Source: a virus
DNA: 6,275 nucleotides
Virus record (IMG/VR): IMGVR_UViG_3300045988_001142
Coordinates: 1-6,275 of that record
Reading direction: 5' to 3' (one strand)
The position numbers and the translations under genes are program-made. Below are positions 1 through 6,275 of the stretch, in pieces; positions within the stretch are counted from its first letter, which is position 1, and every line of letters starts with the position of its first letter. A model generated the notes under the pieces. That model was not told the DNA's origin. It worked only from the letters and a program-made list of their open reading frames with translations, and searched no databases.

Positions 1-55
1 ACTAATAACAGAAGTAGTAGTGTACGGAACAGAAGTTAATTGTTCTGCATTAGAA
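1..55. repeat. Terminal direct repeat, left copy; assembly overlap of a circular genome
   Basis: 1-55 (actaataacagaagtagtagtgtacggaacagaagttaattgttctgcattagaa) is identical to 6221-6275. The capsid reading frame is continuous across the implied junction: minus-strand codons start at 369, 366 ... 54, and 54 maps to 6274, which is in frame with the 4844..6193 ORF. Confidence 0.95.
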
Positions 56-369
56 GCATTCGAGACGGCAGAAGTCATATAATCAGACATCTGGGTAAAC
101 GCCTGAGGTAATGCACGAGAAATCAAACGTAACGGCACAGCGTAAAAATCATAATACTCCTTAATACGAGTATAAGCAGCGGTATTCACCGGAACAGTAC
201 GAGTAAACCAATCTGATTTAATACGATACTTACTACCTGGAATAGCAATCTGCCAATAAACAGGCAAAATTTCACCAACTTTTGCCGAAAACAACTTTTT
301 ACTAGACAAATCAAAGGAAGAGCGATGCACGGCAATTTTCGCTCGATCCAACGGATTAAAATCACTCAT
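1..369 (-). CDS. Major capsid protein VP1 (phiX174 F-like), N-terminal segment; continues across the circular junction into 4844..6220
   Basis: ATG at 369..367. My hand translation has no stops: MSDFNPLDRAKIAVHRSSFDLSSKKLFSAKVGEILPVYWQIAIPGSKYRIKSDWFTRTVPVNTAAYTRIKEYYDFYAVPLRLISRALPQAFTQ... The pattern FDLS..x..G.L.PV....PG......F.RT.P.NTAA.TRI.EY.DF..VP.RL is the conserved Microviridae VP1 N-terminus. The ORF track misses this segment because the ORF runs off the window start. Confidence 0.93.
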   Translation of the reverse strand, partial: MSDFNPLDRAKIAVHRSSFDLSSKKLFSAKVGEILPVYWQIAIPGSKYRIKSDWFTRTVPVNTAAYTRIKEYYDFYAVPLRLISRALPQAFTQMSDYMTSAVSNASNAEQLTSVPYTTTSVIS

Positions 370-394
370 AAACAATTAATTAATAATTAATAAA
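370..394. repeat. A+T-only VP4-VP1 junction (single C at 373) with a tandem heptamer and a TTAATTAA palindrome
   Basis: Plus strand aaacaattaattaataattaataaa. AATTAAT occurs at 378-384 and 385-391, preceded by AATT. The palindrome TTAATTAA is at 376-383. The region lies immediately 5' of the capsid ATG on the coding strand. Confidence 0.6.
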
Positions 395-2209
395 TTAAAC
401 CATGCGATTAAATATATCATTCGCATCATTAAGCTTTTTATGTTTAATCATATCACGACAGAATGTAGCAGCACGGAAATCAAGACATTCTTGTAAGTTG
501 CTACTTTGCCCACTATCATAGGCACTTCCTGTATCGGGTTTCGCGGATTTGATGTAATTACAAGCCGCGAGAGGTGGGATTCTGGGGTCATCAAACGGAA
601 CGCATATCTGTTCTTTAATGGGACGAATAAATCCGTCTGCATATTCTCCGTCCTCTCCGATACCAATGGTTGCCATTTCGCATCCCTCGGCTGGTAAATA
701 GAAATACCGAAGCATAGGGGCTGGCAAAGTCTGTTGTATTCGCAACGAATCACACATTCGTACATAGTCCGCTTTCTTCTCATACTCTATACCTTTCTTA
801 ATGATATAATTAATACGGGGGGTAAAAGGAGACAAATTATCACCAATGAGAGGCAAATGCCAATTTCGGAGGAACCTGGAGACATAAAGGAATAACCGAT
901 ATAACTTATTAATGAAAAATTCAACATCGACATCACTAGAACTGTTAACGAACCTAGTAAGGCACCTAGCATTATGTAATACAATCTTATCATCATCAGT
1001 TAATATATGATTTAAAGTTATATATTGATAATATGCACGAACAATAGATAGAATAGAATTAGTATTATAATCTACAATGCCGAATCGTGCAATTCTTTTT
1101 GGCGCTGTTGCAACTGCATGAACAACTCTAGATATCGCAACAGCATCATCATAGCGAGCTCCTGAGAATCTGGGGAGTAAGGAACGGATATACGATGTGG
1201 GGGGAGTTGACTTGACAACGATGCCATTAAAGTTATACTCTCTTCCATTAATGACCGAATCGATTTTTTGCTCAATTTGCGCATAGACATCTTCACTCTC
1301 ATCAAATGTCTCGCCTTTCTCAAAGAATCCAAGAGACGCACGTGATTTGGGTTTAAACGCACGGCATGAGCGATAAAGAGAGGGAGCAGAAGCCAAGCTG
1401 TTAACGTAACTCGCAACGTACGATGCACAGCCACCGTTGGAACATTGGATATCTGAACGACCGAGCTTCCAACTTTTATTATGACACTCTCGAAGCACAT
1501 TGGAGATTTCCTTTGAGTTAAAGAATAATAGCAAATGGAAATGTGGGCGGAAACGGACTGGACCATACTCGCCAACAGCGTAAAATGATATCTTTTCATT
1601 TGTAAATCTATCTAAATGTCTACGTAATCGTTTAATATAATTCTGAACATCCGCATAGTTCAAGAAAGGAATAAGATTATTACCGTACCTACGGGATAAT
1701 TCCCCATTTGTTCCGTAAGGTGTAGCAGATTGGGTCTTATGGATGAATGCACGCATAGAATCAACAGACACAAACCAATTATCTTTAACCGGTTCATACT
1801 GACCTGTTTCACGATTATATGGGACTGTACCTTGAACCTGAGTAAAGTATATATGCTGTAACCGCTGAGGATCAGTAGTACAGAACTTGGAAACCGGAAC
1901 ATAAGCATGTTTCTCATAACCATGAACAACGCCAGAATCACTTAAAACATCATCATATTCAGAATAGTATACTTCGCAATTGAATAGAGGAATGTGTTCA
2001 TTATCATAGGTGAGCGTAACAAACCAACAATGTTCGAAAGCACTTCCAGCGGTCTTCACGCGCATGGACGCTTTTTGAGCACGCTTGTATATACAATAGT
2101 CGCATTGACCGCAATCTACAGCGATACGCTTACCTGTATATTTGTTGGTGATAAACGAACGATGCTGACAGTGATCAGCAGCTTTAAGCAATTCTGGCGA
2201 ATATTTCAT
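395..2209 (-). CDS. Replication initiation protein VP4 (phiX174 A-like HUH rolling-circle endonuclease), unusually long at 604 aa
   Basis: N-terminal Cys cluster CGQCDYC. RCR motif I FVTLTY (2006-2023, checked against the DNA). The block YIKRLRR...YAVGEYG. Motif II HFHLLLF (1523-1543, checked against the DNA). Motif III with paired tyrosines, SYVASYV (about 1406-1420). ATG at 2209..2207, two nt after the upstream stop. Confidence 0.93.
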   Translation of the reverse strand: MKYSPELLKAADHCQHRSFITNKYTGKRIAVDCGQCDYCIYKRAQKASMRVKTAGSAFEHCWFVTLTYDNEHIPLFNCEVYYSEYDDVLSDSGVVHGYEKHAYVPVSKFCTTDPQRLQHIYFTQVQGTVPYNRETGQYEPVKDNWFVSVDSMRAFIHKTQSATPYGTNGELSRRYGNNLIPFLNYADVQNYIKRLRRHLDRFTNEKISFYAVGEYGPVRFRPHFHLLLFFNSKEISNVLRECHNKSWKLGRSDIQCSNGGCASYVASYVNSLASAPSLYRSCRAFKPKSRASLGFFEKGETFDESEDVYAQIEQKIDSVINGREYNFNGIVVKSTPPTSYIRSLLPRFSGARYDDAVAISRVVHAVATAPKRIARFGIVDYNTNSILSIVRAYYQYITLNHILTDDDKIVLHNARCLTRFVNSSSDVDVEFFINKLYRLFLYVSRFLRNWHLPLIGDNLSPFTPRINYIIKKGIEYEKKADYVRMCDSLRIQQTLPAPMLRYFYLPAEGCEMATIGIGEDGEYADGFIRPIKEQICVPFDDPRIPPLAACNYIKSAKPDTGSAYDSGQSSNLQECLDFRAATFCRDMIKHKKLNDANDIFNRMV

Positions 2210-2211
2210 AA

Positions 2212-2520
2212 TTATAATCTTTTATCAATCACTTGGCGACGACTACGAATACCAAATGATATGTGGATAAATGTAGGATACAATATCAACTGATCAAAAA
2301 CATGAATATTATCCGAATAGCTATGAATATATTCAAGCAAATGACCATAAGTAGTAGAACCGCAAGGCTTGATATCAATAGCTTCACCTATTAGATGTTG
2401 AGAATTAGGAGCACCATTGCAAGCCTTATTCTGTTCGGGAGTACGCTTCGCACTAGTCACAGCAAAATGAACGTTAGAACAAAGCAGGTACTCAAGGAAA
2501 TGCATAAGAGAATAATTCAT
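2212..2520 (-). CDS. Zinc D-Ala-D-Ala-type peptidase, M15 family (M15_3/VanY-like fold); putative endolysin, 102 aa
   Basis: VTSAKRTPEQNKACNGAPNSQHLIGEAIDI matches the family signature S.yR....N...GG...S.H..G.A.D. A distal FIHIS supplies the third ligand. The proposed metal triad is H42 (2397..2395), D49 (2376..2374) and H86 (2265..2263); I verified the H42 and D49 codons in the DNA. The ATG at 2520 overlaps the upstream stop as ATGA. Confidence 0.8.
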   Translation of the reverse strand: MNYSLMHFLEYLLCSNVHFAVTSAKRTPEQNKACNGAPNSQHLIGEAIDIKPCGSTTYGHLLEYIHSYSDNIHVFDQLILYPTFIHISFGIRSRRQVIDKRL

Positions 2521-2738
2521 AGTCCAATAGCATTAAGAATGTAACCAAGAGCAGCAGAAATAGCACCAATTACGATCTTCCAAATATTATTACTTTTCAT
2601 CAGGTTGAGTTTTAAATTCAACAAAATTATTTTCTTCTTTAATTGAATCCACAATAACAACAAGACCCAACGGAGAAACTCGCTCAGAATAATTTCCAAG
2701 ACCATCCAAAGAATTGACAATATAAGGCGGTATAACAT
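2517..2738 (-). CDS. Small hydrophobic membrane protein, holin-like candidate; start uncertain (73 aa from ATG 2738, or a 27-aa single-TM peptide from ATG 2600)
   Basis: The track lists 2517..2741, but 2741 is a GTG. The first ATG is 2738..2736. The long form has two hydrophobic stretches, LYRLILSILWMVLEIILSEFLRWVLLLLWIQL and IWKIVIGAISAALGYILNAIGL, joined by a Lys-rich loop. The short form is MKSNNIWKIVIGAISAALGYILNAIGL, from an ATG 11 nt inside the end of the 64-aa ORF. Its stop overlaps the peptidase start as ATGA (2520..2517), which suggests translational coupling. There is no homology evidence, and the upstream half overlaps the 64-aa ORF out of frame. Confidence 0.4.
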   Translation of the reverse strand: MLYRLILSILWMVLEIILSEFLRWVLLLLWIQLKKKIILLNLKLNLMKSNNIWKIVIGAISAALGYILNAIGL

Positions 2739-2784
2739 CACGACCAGTTTGCTTTTCTTTAAGGGAAATAATAAATTTCTGCAT
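2590..2784 (-). CDS. Hypothetical 64-aa protein; first gene after the long non-coding region
   Basis: ATG at 2784..2782, TAA at 2592..2590. Its composition is balanced and looks soluble: MQKFIISLKEKQTGRDVIPPYIVNSLDGLGNYSERVSPLGLVVIVDSIKEENNFVEFKTQPDEK. An AT-rich leader precedes it. I recognise no family. Confidence 0.5.
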   Translation of the reverse strand: MQKFIISLKEKQTGRDVIPPYIVNSLDGLGNYSERVSPLGLVVIVDSIKEENNFVEFKTQPDEK

Positions 2785-2880
2785 AATTGTAAGATTTTAA
2801 ATGTTAAAAATGTTAATAAATAATAAGTTTGGTTTCTACAGAGGCAAAGGAAAGAATTATTTTTGAATAAACAAAATATT
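2785..2880 (-). promoter_or_regulatory. Extremely AT-rich leader upstream of the 64-aa ORF / lysis / Rep gene string; probable promoter region
   Basis: 17 G+C in the 90 nt at 2791-2880 (19%, hand count). Contains the tandem 9-mer AAATGTTAA twice (2799-2816). On the minus strand there is a TTTG (inside CCTTTGCC) and only a near-match (TATTTTG) to the Bacteroides -7 element TAnnTTTG, with no exact consensus. This is a positional argument only. Confidence 0.3.
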
Positions 2881-2974
2881 CCGGAGGTTTTTTATTCTAC
2901 GGTTAGAGTGTGAGTTGTGCGTTTATGGACAAGAAAAAGGCGAAATTGAGATGATAACTCAATTTTCCTCCGGA

Positions 2975-3175
2975 CACAACTAGGGGCTTCGCTTGAATAA
3001 CATAGGGGTATAGGCACGGCAGGTCAGATAGAACCTGCCTTTGCGCGCCTTCGCGCTAAAATACCGAAGCGGAACGCTTCTCTAAAGAAGTCGCTCCGCT
3101 CCGTTTTTCGACCAGGCCCTACGCGGGCGGCGGGTGTATATCGCTCAAACGCCGCGATAGGCTCTTAGTCCTGAA
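2975..3175. other. GC-rich multi-hairpin non-coding island (candidate ssDNA origin / structured RNA / host-interaction site)
   Basis: 93 G+C in the 160 nt at 3011-3170 (58%, hand count). Stems verified by eye: 3018-3024 ggcaggt with 3033-3039 acctgcc; 3043-3047 gcgcg with 3052-3056 cgcgc; 3066-3071 gaagcg with 3075-3080 cgcttc; 3139-3144 tatcgc with 3154-3159 gcgata; and an alternative 3127-3132 gcggcg with 3150-3155 cgccgc. Just upstream, 2880-2887 tccggagg pairs with 2967-2974 cctccgga and encloses the hairpin 2943-2950 aaattgag / 2958-2965 ctcaattt. No ORF longer than 27 codons starts with ATG here on either strand. Confidence 0.6.
3057..3108. terminator. Bidirectional intrinsic-terminator-like hairpin downstream of the VP1/150-aa/VP2 gene string
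   Basis: An imperfect long hairpin pairs 3068-3080 (agcggaacgcttc) with 3087-3100 (gaagtcgctccgct) around the loop tctaaa. It is followed on the plus strand by ccgTTTTTcg (3104-3108). It is preceded by ctAAAAta (3058-3061), which reads as a TATTTT tract after the hairpin on the minus, coding strand. It lies 140-180 nt downstream of the VP2 stop. Confidence 0.4.
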
Positions 3176-3240
3176 GAATGTTATCGTGGAAGAATAGGTC
3201 ATAAACCGGAACCATTATAAATAGTAGTATTACGAGGACC

Positions 3241-4383
3241 TTAATCATAACGAAAGACCTGAGCGCCGGGGCGCATAGATCCAATTACATTACCAACACC
3301 AGAAGCTATAGAACCAAGTCCATGCGCGACAGATTCCCAATAATAGGTACGACCTTGTTTCCGAGTTAAATCAGCGCCATATTCATACATTTTTTGCCTA
3401 GCCTTATCAGTATTATACTGAATATGCTTACGTAATTTAACATTAGCGGAATCATAAGACGCGTCACGATATTGTAATTGGTAAGCAGCGTTCGCAGCCT
3501 TAATCAAAGAATCGGAAGTTCTTTCAGCAATTCGATCAGAAATCTTTTGACCAGAAGCCTGGGCAGCCGTTAATATAGCACGTTGGATTTCAGTCTGAAT
3601 CTGTTTCTCCGTAAGAGCACCATTCAATTGAAGATTAACCAAAGTCTGACTTTTTATAAATAAGTCAGCTTGTTGTTGCTGGTCAATATAACGGTTTAAC
3701 ATACGTTGAGCGTCAGAATTCAAAAGAATCTGAGTTTCTTGAGCAGCAGACAATCGTTCAGCAAACTGAAGATTCTTCAATTCTTGAGCCTCTTTAGATT
3801 GATCCAAAGCAGCGGATATACGACCAGTTTCTTTATTCCAATAGCCAGACTCACCAATAGCCAAATTCTTCCAATTTGTCAGACCTTTATAATAATTAGC
3901 AATTTGAGGAGTAATAGCATCAATATTATTAGATTCTGATTGTGCTTTTTTCGCTTGGGCAAGAGAAGCCAAAGAATTAAAGATATCGGAAAAATTAGGC
4001 GTAAAAGCCTGCATAGAAGGAACAGGAGCAGCAGAAGCGGCAGCACCACCAGAAGCGGGAGATCTAGAGCCAGCCATAGCTGCAGAACCTTGAACGAACG
4101 GATTCAAACCACGGGAAATCATAGCATTGGGGGAATTATAAGAATTATTCATTCTCCACATCTTTTCTTGCCAATCACGCTGAATCTGAGCCTGTTCGGC
4201 GTTAAAAGCATTATTATCGCGATTAATATCAATATTGGTCTGGTTGGCCTTATTCTGCGAAGAAGCGCCAATAGCATTGCCAATTAAAGAAGAACCAGCA
4301 GCGATAAGGCCTCCAAGGACAAGAGGCGCAATACACTTATCGTTAGGGGAGAGAATACTCTCCCCTATTTCTAGAAACTTCAT
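3241..4383 (-). CDS. Minor capsid / DNA pilot protein VP2 (phiX174 H-like), 380 aa
   Basis: A Gly/Ala-rich hydrophobic N-terminus (APLVLGGLIAAGSSLIGNAIGASS). The conserved block AEQAQIQRDWQEKMWRMNNSYNSPNAMISRGLNPF, typical of microvirus VP2. An Ala/Gly/Ser linker. A long Gln-rich helical region (QELKNLQFAERLSAAQETQILL...QIQTEIQRAILTAAQA) resembling the H-protein coiled-coil tube. The position after VP1 is canonical. ATG at 4383 overlaps the upstream stop as ATGA. Confidence 0.87.
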   Translation of the reverse strand: MKFLEIGESILSPNDKCIAPLVLGGLIAAGSSLIGNAIGASSQNKANQTNIDINRDNNAFNAEQAQIQRDWQEKMWRMNNSYNSPNAMISRGLNPFVQGSAAMAGSRSPASGGAAASAAPVPSMQAFTPNFSDIFNSLASLAQAKKAQSESNNIDAITPQIANYYKGLTNWKNLAIGESGYWNKETGRISAALDQSKEAQELKNLQFAERLSAAQETQILLNSDAQRMLNRYIDQQQQADLFIKSQTLVNLQLNGALTEKQIQTEIQRAILTAAQASGQKISDRIAERTSDSLIKAANAAYQLQYRDASYDSANVKLRKHIQYNTDKARQKMYEYGADLTRKQGRTYYWESVAHGLGSIASGVGNVIGSMRPGAQVFRYD

Positions 4384-4832
4384 GATGCAGAACCAGCAGG
4401 GGCGGACGCTTCAGGAGCGGGCTCTACTGTTTGCTCTGCCAACATAGCCTCGGCATAGGCCGTAAGCTCAGACTTTTCAGAAGCTAATTGCTGTAATACA
4501 GCCTGACGCTCAGACATGGTCTGGCAATGACGAGATATAACACAGTCAAAACGTTGTTCATCCGTCATATCATCCATAGTAGTAGAAGGAGTAGGATGCA
4601 TCTGAGCCAAGATATTATTAACGTTCATGTCACCAAGAAGGCGACGATACTTTTCTTGGTTTAGAAGGATAGCAGTCATGTCATTGAATATTAATGAACC
4701 ATCATCTAATTCATCAATTTGAACAGAATCAAACACACCAGACTGATAAGCGGGATGTCCTTCAACATCATCAATAGGACCGAATTGTTCTCCAATTTCG
4801 GGAGTAGGGAGTTTATAGTCAAATCTTCTCAT
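4380..4832 (-). CDS. Acidic 150-aa protein between VP1 and VP2; possible internal scaffolding (VP3-like) protein
   Basis: ATG at 4832..4830, 11 nt after the VP1 stop. TGA at 4382..4380 overlaps the VP2 ATG. Asp/Glu-rich, with a low-complexity tail EPAPEASAPAGSAS. The coding call rests on packing, coupling and composition. The scaffold role is inferred from size and charge only. Confidence 0.7.
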   Translation of the reverse strand: MRRFDYKLPTPEIGEQFGPIDDVEGHPAYQSGVFDSVQIDELDDGSLIFNDMTAILLNQEKYRRLLGDMNVNNILAQMHPTPSTTMDDMTDEQRFDCVISRHCQTMSERQAVLQQLASEKSELTAYAEAMLAEQTVEPAPEASAPAGSAS

Positions 4833-4843
4833 AACAACACAAA

Positions 4844-6275
4844 TTAATAAGGTAAACCATTTCGATCCAAGTTCTGAACGGCATAAACTTGGAAATTAAC
4901 ATTACAAATCAACTGATCAAAAGCAAGAGAATACGAAGACACAGTAACTTGAGGTAAGAATATAGAATTCATTTGGAACGGGAACACTTTCATAGATTTA
5001 TAGTTCCAAAGACCAGTACGAGTCAAAAGGTTTTCACCTCCTAAAGGCGCAGCCCATGCTTGATAAGCTAATTGAGGACGAAGGGCTCCGTTAACACGAT
5101 CGATATCGGATTTCCATTGCCAATAGCGAAGATTATAACCAAGATTACCAGTACCGTCACCAGACATGTTCTTAGAATTAACCAGAGCTAATTGAGGAAC
5201 AGGTTGCATGCCTAATTGATCGAACGCAGGCTGAGGGAAATCAGATATAGAAGTCACCATTAACTGAGGATGTTGACCAGTAGAAGCCCAATCCAACATA
5301 GGAACAGCATGATAAACACACATAATTACACAGTGCTCAGCACCACAATCATAAGTAATTTCATGGCCACTATTAGAGCTAACACCTTTACCAGCAATAC
5401 TAGCTTGAGAAGCATCAGTATCAAGGTTAGTATTAACTACTTCATTGATATTAATAACAGAAGACCAACCACCAATATAGTGAGCGTGATTACCCATATA
5501 CTCAGGGGCTTTAATACCAAATTGAGCAGCCATTTGATCTGAGTAATCTTTGCTAGAGAATTGAACTACTTCTTTCCAGCGCTGGAGGTATTCTGTTGCA
5601 CGAATTGAAAGGGCGGAAAGGTCAGAATTAACATAAGCAATCCGATTAGAAGTATCAGTATTAGTAGAAGCCAACGAAGTCCCATTAGCTGCATTAGAAA
5701 CACGACCGATAGAACCAGAATCACCCGAAAATTTACGAGAAAGAACTACAACATTAGAAGGATCAAGATTAGTTAAAGAAGGTAGAACAGCAACCGAACC
5801 ATACTGAGATGCAGGAAGAACTCCCATAAACATATCCTTGGGGTAATTACAGTAACGTAATTGCATCCAAGTAGCGGACATGGTTTGTTTCGTAAACGCG
5901 GACTTACCGTCCCAATAATCTACATTATAAGAGAAAGCCTGATGCTTTTCCCATTGAGAATTGCTGTAAAAGTCAAAGTATATTTTCTGATAAGATAATA
6001 AAGGTAACAGGTTAACCGCAACCGATTTCTTATACAAAAGAGGATTTAGATTATCATCCAGATCAGTGATACCTGTATACGAAGATGTTACAATATCCTT
6101 GGATAAGGAATTAGGATCAAGAATAGAACCGTAATTCAGATAGTCAAGTAACTTACAAGCACCATAACGATACGGAATATTAGCGTCATCCAAAAGAGCA
6201 GCAGCGTTTGAAAGATAATCACTAATAACAGAAGTAGTAGTGTACGGAACAGAAGTTAATTGTTCTGCATTAGAA
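4844..6275 (-). CDS. Major capsid protein VP1 (F-like), C-terminal segment; unique part is 4844..6220, joined length 1,746 nt = 581 aa
   Basis: Tracked ORF 4844..6193. Its listed start is a TTG at 6193..6191 and is really an internal Leu, since the frame stays open to the window end. It contains a conserved microvirus capsid block: SIRATEYLQRWKEVVQFSSKDYSDQMAAQFGIKAPEYMGNHAHYIGG. Stop TAA at 4846..4844. Confidence 0.95.
   Translation of the reverse strand, partial: SNAEQLTSVPYTTTSVISDYLSNAAALLDDANIPYRYGACKLLDYLNYGSILDPNSLSKDIVTSSYTGITDLDDNLNPLLYKKSVAVNLLPLLSYQKIYFDFYSNSQWEKHQAFSYNVDYWDGKSAFTKQTMSATWMQLRYCNYPKDMFMGVLPASQYGSVAVLPSLTNLDPSNVVVLSRKFSGDSGSIGRVSNAANGTSLASTNTDTSNRIAYVNSDLSALSIRATEYLQRWKEVVQFSSKDYSDQMAAQFGIKAPEYMGNHAHYIGGWSSVININEVVNTNLDTDASQASIAGKGVSSNSGHEITYDCGAEHCVIMCVYHAVPMLDWASTGQHPQLMVTSISDFPQPAFDQLGMQPVPQLALVNSKNMSGDGTGNLGYNLRYWQWKSDIDRVNGALRPQLAYQAWAAPLGGENLLTRTGLWNYKSMKVFPFQMNSIFLPQVTVSSYSLAFDQLICNVNFQVYAVQNLDRNGLPY
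6221..6275. repeat. Terminal direct repeat, right copy; assembly overlap of a circular genome
   Basis: Exact 55-nt copy of 1-55. Unit genome length is therefore 6,220 nt. Confidence 0.95.

Follow-up and report, generated by a model that had tools for sequence, protein, structure and literature searches.

A conserved 27-residue membrane peptide gene coupled to a truncated M15 peptidase gene: a candidate lysis module of microviruses

Two overlapping small genes ahead of Rep

We analyzed a 6,275-nucleotide (nt) stretch of viral DNA (IMG/VR record IMGVR_UViG_3300045988_001142, positions 1 to 6,275; hereafter, the window), which is a near-complete genome of a gut microvirus with every gene on the minus strand, and focused on 2 overlapping genes that precede the replication gene Rep. 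The first (2517–2600; ATG at 2600–2598, stop TGA at 2519–2517) encodes a 27-amino acid (aa) hydrophobic micropeptide, MKSNNIWKIVIGAISAALGYILNAIGL, and the second (2212–2520; ATG at 2520–2518, stop at 2214–2212) encodes a 102-aa peptidase, the start codon of which overlaps the micropeptide stop codon in the tetranucleotide ATGA (2520–2517). A preliminary description, made from the sequence alone, had read this layout as a holin/endolysin-like lysis cassette, and the layout itself is present as described. The micropeptide gene is overlapped by 11 nt by an upstream 64-aa open reading frame (ORF; 2590–2784), the stop of which lies 8 nt inside it, whereas Rep (395–2209) starts 2 nt past the peptidase stop; all 3 small genes ahead of Rep overlap or abut one another.

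Micropeptide and peptidase are genuine genes under purifying selection. Across 83 unique loci from IMG/VR and GenBank, in which the peptidase is 72% to 98% identical to that of the window, column variability in the 69 nt that encode only the micropeptide is 0.075, 0.002, and 0.193 at codon positions 1, 2, and 3, respectively, and the pooled ratio of nonsynonymous to synonymous polymorphism (pN/pS) is 0.11 in its own frame versus 0.94 and 7.3 in the other 2 frames. Selection is stronger on the micropeptide than on the peptidase (pooled pN/pS of 0.26), and the core WK[IL][IV]IGA[VI]SAALGY[IV]LN[AST][IV]G[LI] is near-invariant in the 83 loci. A tblastn search recovered the micropeptide from exactly 35 GenBank phage records, all of microviruses of its clade, and from none elsewhere; it lies directly upstream of the peptidase in all 35 and is annotated in none of them (0/35). 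A single transmembrane (TM) helix is predicted at residues 9–27 (mean Kyte–Doolittle hydropathy of 2.03 over 19 residues), preceded by an N-terminus with a net charge of +2. Eight of the 19 TM residues are Gly, Ala, Ser, or Thr, and one face of the helix holds G12, S15, A16, G19, N23, and G26.

The peptidase is a truncated M15 family member

The product of the second gene (11.6 kDa) is a truncated member of Peptidase_M15_3 (M15A) that retains the metal triad and lacks an export signal. It matches Pfam PF08291, carried by all of its listed homologs, with a score of 33.6 bits (E = 4.7e-8; gathering threshold of 23.2 bits), and PHROG 894 “endolysin” with an E value of 6e-14. In a profile of 13 microviral homologs, the segment NSQHLIGEAID is aligned to the zinc-ligand motif SKHITGDAID of the T5 L-alanyl-D-glutamate peptidase (2mxz), and H42 and D49 align with H154 and D161 of the zinc D-Ala-D-Ala carboxypeptidase of Streptomyces (1lbu). 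No substitution of H42, D49, or H86 was seen among 10 diverse homologs from microviruses and tailed phages, including the endolysin of phage KS9; S23, R26, N31, G36, S40, G45, and A47 are likewise invariant among the homologs. The protein lacks a hydrophobic segment (best 19-residue Kyte–Doolittle mean of 1.05) and a signal peptide. The M15 assignment, the intact H-D-H triad, and the lack of an obvious signal peptide, all proposed in the preliminary description, were thus borne out.

The truncation is N-terminal: the protein has approximately 30 to 40 residues fewer than its 126- to 162-aa homologs, lacks the segment “hFxxxEF,” and matches PF08291 over profile positions 44–89 of 108 only. An AlphaFold2 model (predicted local distance difference test score of 77.7, falling below 50 around residues 36–42) resembles predicted viral M15/M15A peptidases in BFVD (E values of 1e-5 to 1e-3; TM-scores of 0.55 to 0.72). 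More than 1,800 cluster representatives of the peptidase were found, nearly all on contigs of approximately 6 kb. We regard the protein as a candidate endolysin with putative muralytic activity, which was probably acquired horizontally and would play an accessory role.

The occurrence of such enzymes in microviruses, which the preliminary description had mentioned as sporadic, is on record. Roux et al. (2012, PLoS One, PMC3394797) identified M15_3 peptidases in gut genomes of Alpavirinae (6) and Gokushovirinae (5), interpreted them as horizontally acquired, and suggested that they might serve as endolysins, and later work reported M15 peptidases in further microvirus subfamilies. The microviral M15 peptidase and its proposed function are therefore already known. 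The window shares with the genomes of Roux et al. (2012), and with the “peptidase” coding sequences (CDSs) of Dulem and bajarodmic viruses in GenBank, the PF08291 domain, affiliation to Microviridae, the endolysin proposal, and the position before Rep. Its closest GenBank records, in most of which a “peptidase” is annotated at the equivalent position, encode peptidases 74% to 80% identical to that of the window. By contrast, the 27-aa membrane gene was not described by Roux et al. (2012), who noted an adjoining “unknown ORF” in 5 of the 11 genomes.

Annotation of the pair in public records is uneven. The peptidase is labeled merely “hypothetical protein” in Dulem viruses 241 and 243 and in MG945572. 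In the records of Dulem viruses 238, 226, and 243 (loci L004, 1827–2201; L061 and L062, 1438–1812), the deposited peptidase CDS is 124 aa long; an in-frame upstream ATG was chosen, which extends the CDS by 22 codons and reads across the micropeptide gene. The peptidase frame of the window is closed by a TAA 4 codons before its ATG.

The 2 genes usually travel together

We retrieved 124 unique loci from IMG/VR, hereafter clade 1, with a degenerate nucleotide pattern that describes the micropeptide core. The peptidase lies directly downstream in 109 of them, with the ATGA overlap in 108, so that the hydrophobic ORF of the preliminary description is indeed conserved in peptidase-bearing relatives, an exception being Microvirus mar63 (see below). 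The conservation extends to relatives in which Rep identity falls to approximately 66% to 73% while the TM core stays near-invariant.

Nine clade 1 genomes of 5.4 to 6.15 kb (L195, L226, L230, L240, L247, L249, L261, L269, and L275, all from IMG/VR) keep the micropeptide without a peptidase and encode the capsid, pilot, 150-aa, 64-aa, and Rep proteins. Their micropeptide ends in ...LSAIGV and is followed by an AT-rich spacer of approximately 52 nt and then Rep; because this junction sequence is shared, we treat the 9 genomes as one lineage with respect to the junction. In a neighbor-joining tree of Rep, they are scattered among genomes with a peptidase, a pattern suggestive of recombination or of limited resolution of the tree; both the tree and the junction are compatible with either gain or loss of the peptidase.

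A second, deeply diverged clade, with approximately 30% Rep identity and approximately 50% peptidase identity, carries a divergent 29-aa analog of the micropeptide, MKSETKSKIWSAIIAAAVSLLTSIAQIFS, followed by the peptidase in all 49 unique loci at spacings of 3, 9, 16, 21, 32, and 56 nt. When the 2 peptide types are aligned on their Trp residue, both display a small or polar face (G/A, A/S, G/T, N/Q, and G/S) with a spacing of 3 to 4 residues, which would suit helix–helix packing.

The 64-aa ORF is conserved and belongs to no assigned family: its 2,820 cluster representatives are all hypothetical, Pfam and PHROG matches are absent, and its model is of low confidence, all-beta, and with an acidic tail, matching only uncharacterized or hypothetical microvirus proteins in a structure search. 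A counterpart of 57 to 58 aa stands before the micropeptide in clade 2 and directly before the peptidase in mar63. Synonymous polymorphism (pS) in the 64-aa ORF is 0.23 to 0.26, clearly below the 0.40 to 0.47 of the micropeptide and peptidase.

Resemblance to the smalltalk peptides of Bacteroidales

In a third microvirus lineage, represented by bajarodmic virus 1034, the gene for a 162-aa M15 peptidase is preceded, at a distance of 26 nt, by one for a 31-aa TM peptide. This peptide is a clear member of DUF6486 (Pfam PF20096; E = 1.8e-11) and matches the NCBIfam model NF033879 “smalltalk protein” (E = 9e-10); an exact-pattern scan of IMG/VR for peptides of this type gave no match. Related smalltalk-type peptides lie directly before Rep in bajarodmic viruses 622 and 324. 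The micropeptide of the window matches neither the DUF6486 nor the NF033879 model, and the micropeptide of a sister genome aligns over its full length with the smalltalk/DUF6486 model at 17.2 bits, against a cutoff of 22.7 (E = 0.004), a clade 2 variant reaching an E value of 0.15. An hhalign comparison of the micropeptides with the smalltalk group yielded a probability of 56% (E = 1.1e-4) over 9 columns, and short TM helices of this kind may match by composition. Homology between the 2 groups (KIVIGAISA---ALGY versus KVIIAVASAIAGALGY) is thus plausible rather than established.

The resemblance extends to gene order. In Parabacteroides distasonis, an annotated smalltalk gene lies directly upstream of a gene for a 148-aa signal-less N-acetylmuramoyl-L-alanine amidase. 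Gut metagenomes supplied 84 unique smalltalk loci, of which 73 extend far enough downstream to be assessed; the amidase is the next ORF in 59 of these 73, with its start no more than 50 nt away in 44. Many of these loci are near-identical, so they do not represent independent events. Like the micropeptide, the smalltalk/DUF6486 peptides of Bacteroidales are approximately 30 aa long, have a basic N-terminus and a single TM helix rich in Gly, Ala, and Ser, and are encoded upstream of a small signal-less murein hydrolase, but the cellular members are paired with Amidase_2, whereas the window peptide is paired with M15. The pairing of a tiny TM peptide with a signal-less murein hydrolase encoded just downstream is thus found repeatedly, both in microviruses and in the order presumed to contain their hosts. 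The cellular genes are located between an HU-family DNA-binding gene and the amidase gene (P. distasonis loci L370, 3022–3778, and L371, 3031–3573; metagenomic loci from L374 onward). The cellular peptides end in a lipobox-like motif (...GISAC, ...GIQSC), 2 to 4 residues after the Cys, and this Cys is absent from the microviral peptides except that of bajarodmic virus 324.

Comparison with known lysis systems

The closest nonmicroviral homologs of the peptidase are endolysins encoded within holin/spanin cassettes, namely, gp23 of Burkholderia phage KS9 (holin gp22, endolysin gp23, and Rz/Rz1; gp22–gp24') and the peptidase of Stenotrophomonas phage Siara (gp026–030, comprising the peptidase, holin/antiholin, holin, and spanins). 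These cassettes share with the window a homologous signal-less M15 enzyme (35% to 44% identity over approximately 80 residues) and an adjoining membrane protein gene, often with a stop/start overlap. They differ in that their membrane proteins are 100 to 125 aa long with 2 or 3 TM domains (TMDs), whereas the micropeptide has 27 aa, a single TMD, and no cytoplasmic tail; furthermore, the enzyme of the window is cut down to 102 aa and its membrane gene persists in genomes from which the enzyme is absent. In tailed phage contigs encoding relatives of the bajarodmic peptidase, the stop of a gene for a TM protein, either holin-like with several TMDs or 38 aa long with one, overlaps the peptidase ATG. 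Three such IMG/VR contigs of 42 to 62 kb (L302, L303, and L309; approximately positions 1385–1501) carry the 38-aa ORF, MRTTIRKISYIARQVIAAPALAVGLLCMGIWYIITDKD, which ends at or overlaps the start of the M15 peptidase gene and is preceded by a gene for a 162-aa N-terminally anchored protein; this layout is a possible tailed phage counterpart of the micropeptide arrangement.

Among microviruses, phage Ebor (Tainavirinae) encodes a peptidoglycan hydrolase, Gp7, active by zymogram, together with a small predicted membrane protein of 45 aa, Gp1 (Bardy et al. 2025, mBio, PMC11980548). Compared by description, Ebor differs in belonging to another subfamily and infecting Rhodobacter, and its Gp1 and Gp7 genes are not adjacent, with no role assigned to Gp1. 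A membrane partner for microviral peptidases was not described in the literature that we could search, subscription journals lying outside its coverage. As far as this literature shows, the coupled conserved micropeptide, its occurrence without a peptidase, and its resemblance to smalltalk–hydrolase pairs are new.

A 2-part lysis module as the favored reading

The reading that we favor, and to which we give an even chance of being correct, is that the 2 genes form a lysis module whose core effector, acting at the membrane, is the micropeptide, with the peptidase as an accessory endolysin. The micropeptide would insert into the inner membrane with its N-terminus inside, self-associate through the face formed by small residues and Asn (G12-A16-G19-N23-G26), and then permeabilize or gate the membrane. 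The peptidase, produced from the same mRNA by termination–reinitiation at the ATGA, would reach the murein and cut peptide stems or cross-links; the micropeptide can evidently do without the phage enzyme, and in genomes that encode no phage hydrolase, it would possibly use one of the host. We infer membrane insertion, the formation of a pore or lesion, muralytic activity, and the role in lysis from sequence data. We assign the core function to the micropeptide because natural peptidase-less genomes exist and because its conservation is extreme, whereas the peptidase alone would be insufficient for lysis, given that it has no export signal and is absent from some close relatives.

Several observations weigh against this reading. 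The pair is not obligate: tblastn with 4 diverse peptidases found none anywhere in the 9 peptidase-less clade 1 genomes, and the peptidase motif is absent from the fetched halves of the bajarodmic virus 622 and 324 genomes. Conversely, the 101-aa peptidase gene of Microvirus mar63 is coupled through ATGA to a soluble ORF of 58 aa, and the whole mar63 genome lacks a credible TM micropeptide. As each gene occurs without the other, the 2 are not strictly interdependent, and “dedicated holin” is too narrow a term for the micropeptide. The TM helix reaches the last residue (...NAIGL), leaving no charged hydrophilic C-terminal tail, and no significant holin family match was found in Pfam or PHROGs for either peptide type (best E values of 0.03 to 0.5): the window micropeptide has no Pfam match and at best a weak one to PHROG 937 “hemolysin” (E = 0.5), and the clade 2 variants reach holin PHROG 443 with an E value of 0.13 and Phage_r1t_holin with 0.033, below the cutoff. 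Unlike typical holins, which evolve rapidly, the micropeptide is extremely conserved, which fits binding to a specific partner or target. On the side of the enzyme, the N-terminal third of the Pfam domain is missing, and structure prediction, which the preliminary description had put forward as a check, recovered the viral M15/M15A models but no significant Foldseek match in the PDB. Finally, no spanin-like outer membrane component was found in the window genome.

The holin/endolysin analogy of the preliminary description is thus upheld in part: the homologous enzymes of tailed phages do reside in holin/spanin cassettes, with stop/ATG overlaps, but the pair is not obligate and the canonical holin features are absent. 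We classify the micropeptide as a putative functional analog of a holin and not as a member of a holin family, because it has no cytoplasmic tail and no family match.

Alternative explanations

Somewhat further reaching, and put forward only tentatively, is the possibility that the 27-aa peptide is a member of a smalltalk-like family and the missing lysis effector of Bacteroidales-infecting (Alpavirinae-type) microviruses, acting either alone or by releasing signal-less murein hydrolases across the inner membrane, namely the phage M15 enzyme in genomes that encode it and the smalltalk-linked amidase of the host in those that do not.

Alternatively, the micropeptide could lyse cells on its own, as do the single-gene lysis proteins phiX174 E and LysM, by blocking a membrane step in the synthesis or flipping of cell wall precursors (MraY, MurJ, or similar); the peptidase would then only hasten or complete the breakdown of the wall once the envelope has failed. 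We hold this to be unlikely, though well worth retaining. Like E, which belongs to the same virus family, and LysM, the micropeptide is small, has one TMD, and comes from a small phage; the known lysis proteins of small phages are single-TMD proteins, which can be as short as the 37 aa of LysM from phage M (PMC12506998). The micropeptide persists without a peptidase in the 9 clade 1 genomes and in other smalltalk-type microviruses, and a TM core that stays near-invariant despite the divergence of Rep is expected of a helix fitting a conserved host protein. However, Pfam and PHROGs reveal no similarity to E (including no Microvir_lysis match), LysM, or any other lysis family; E is overprinted, whereas the micropeptide has its own 69-nt slot between 2 ORFs; and single-gene lysis phages have no peptidoglycan hydrolase, whereas the micropeptide is usually coupled to one. 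A precursor pathway inhibitor would leave unexplained the recurrent position upstream of signal-less murein hydrolases in phages and Bacteroidales chromosomes, and cellular smalltalk homologs would be toxic if they blocked wall synthesis. The peptidase-less genomes and the extreme conservation nevertheless keep both autonomous lysis and the use of a host hydrolase alive as rivals of the 2-part module.

A membrane role outside lysis, such as superinfection exclusion, anchoring of replication or assembly, or entry, with the peptidase serving separately, for example in wall remodeling at entry, appears to us more doubtful still. It would accommodate the occurrence of either gene without the other, the position of the micropeptide always just before Rep whether or not the peptidase is present, and the absence of a holin signature in Pfam and PHROGs. 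Yet a signal-less 11.6-kDa hydrolase needs passage across the inner membrane, the stop/start adjacency is kept in more than 150 unique loci from 2 deeply diverged clades (approximately 30% Rep identity), and the same pairing of a small TM peptide with a hydrolase is found in host genomes.

The preliminary description had also considered a 73-aa form of the hydrophobic ORF (2517–2738, minus strand), initiated at ATG 2738 and overprinted on the 64-aa ORF. Its product would be a class II-like holin with 2 or 3 TMDs, comparable to phiX174 E within gene D, and we consider it very improbable. The frame is open upstream of the micropeptide, and most loci have the ATG; the 64-aa ORF shows less synonymous diversity than its neighbors, and its pN/pS is 0.62 in the +1 frame versus 0.50 in its own. 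Against this, codon position 2 of the extension is as variable as position 3 (0.04, 0.112, and 0.119 at positions 1, 2, and 3), 2 or 3 loci, L034 among them, carry stops in the long frame and L025 and L030 are without its ATG, although the 27-aa gene is kept, and most clade 2 loci have no ATG in the upstream extension. Two stop-creating synonymous variants were seen, and their depletion vanishes once transversion bias is taken into account (2/17 versus 7/33, not significant). Long open hydrophobic +1 frames are common throughout this T-rich genome, a general by-product of T-rich wobble positions. The long form is therefore not supported.

We attach even less weight to a cytoplasmic target, whereby the peptidase would act on precursors (D-Ala-D-Ala or UDP-MurNAc-peptide) in the manner of VanX/VanY and starve wall synthesis without export. 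The M15 clan does include the cytoplasmic dipeptidase VanX, the peptidase has no export signal, and such a target would match the habit of microviruses of attacking wall synthesis, but the best matches are to M15_3/M15A phage endolysins in holin cassettes and not to VanX (M15D), and the coupled membrane peptide would be left unexplained. Lastly, fusion of the TM segment to the peptidase by frameshifting or stop read-through into a signal-anchor-release (SAR) endolysin, as might be imagined from the Gly/Ala/Ser-rich composition typical of SAR domains (8 of 19 residues) and from clade 2 loci that have the micropeptide and the peptidase in one frame, one stop and one sense codon apart, was rejected, because the frames differ in clade 1, where the junction has no slippery heptamer, the variable spacing (3 to 56 nt) means that the frame relation is not conserved within clade 2, the peptidase N-terminus is not hydrophobic, and the micropeptide survives free-standing without a peptidase.

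Genome context and presumed host

The remainder of the window encodes, on the same strand, the major capsid protein (4844–6193, continuing beyond the window end), a 150-aa ORF (4380–4832), and the DNA pilot protein (3241–4383), the last of which is separated from the 64-aa ORF by a noncoding stretch of 456 nt. Within this stretch of an otherwise AT-rich genome lies a GC-rich noncoding block of approximately 280 nt (2900–3180), kept in approximately 125 related loci, in which folding as single-stranded DNA is far above that of shuffled sequences (z = -4.3) and which contains several GC hairpins, for example GAAGCGTTCCGCTTC at 3080–3066. The block has no Rfam match and may act as the origin of complementary-strand synthesis, as a terminator, or as both. 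At 604 aa, Rep is unusually long; it has a Cys-rich N-terminal stretch, CGQCDYC, before a Rep_ORF2-G2P domain match limited to residues 184–270. Scans of the cassette for Rfam families, Bacteroides-type promoter motifs, and sigma-70 promoters or terminators returned nothing informative.

The closest GenBank records are Dulem viruses from lemur feces and saliva and Microviridae sp. from dog feces, with approximately 78% nucleotide identity over 50% to 70% of the genome. No integrated copy of a close relative was found in 185,579 species genomes; a profile scan detected only homologs of 30% to 47% identity, many of them in Bacteroidales. These homologs are consistent with Bacteroidales as the host phylum, although they do not assign a host directly.

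Implications for microvirus biology

Microviruses rank with the most abundant phages in the gut of mammals, and to our knowledge, little has been established about host lysis by those outside the phiX174 group. A near-invariant 27-aa membrane gene that occupies one slot in hundreds of genomes provides a concrete and cheaply testable lysis candidate. Should the micropeptide prove ordinary, what remains would be a lysis enzyme of a known type, now correctly annotated. If, however, it permeabilizes membranes or releases hydrolases, it would represent a minimal lysis or export device, a function would be assigned to the smalltalk/DUF6486 family of Bacteroidales, and gene callers and GenBank records would be systematically missing a core microvirus gene. 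If the smalltalk-like reading is true, the 27-aa peptide would be the smallest known phage lysis protein, and the cellular smalltalk–amidase pairs would be minimal holin–endolysin-like modules serving autolysis or export.

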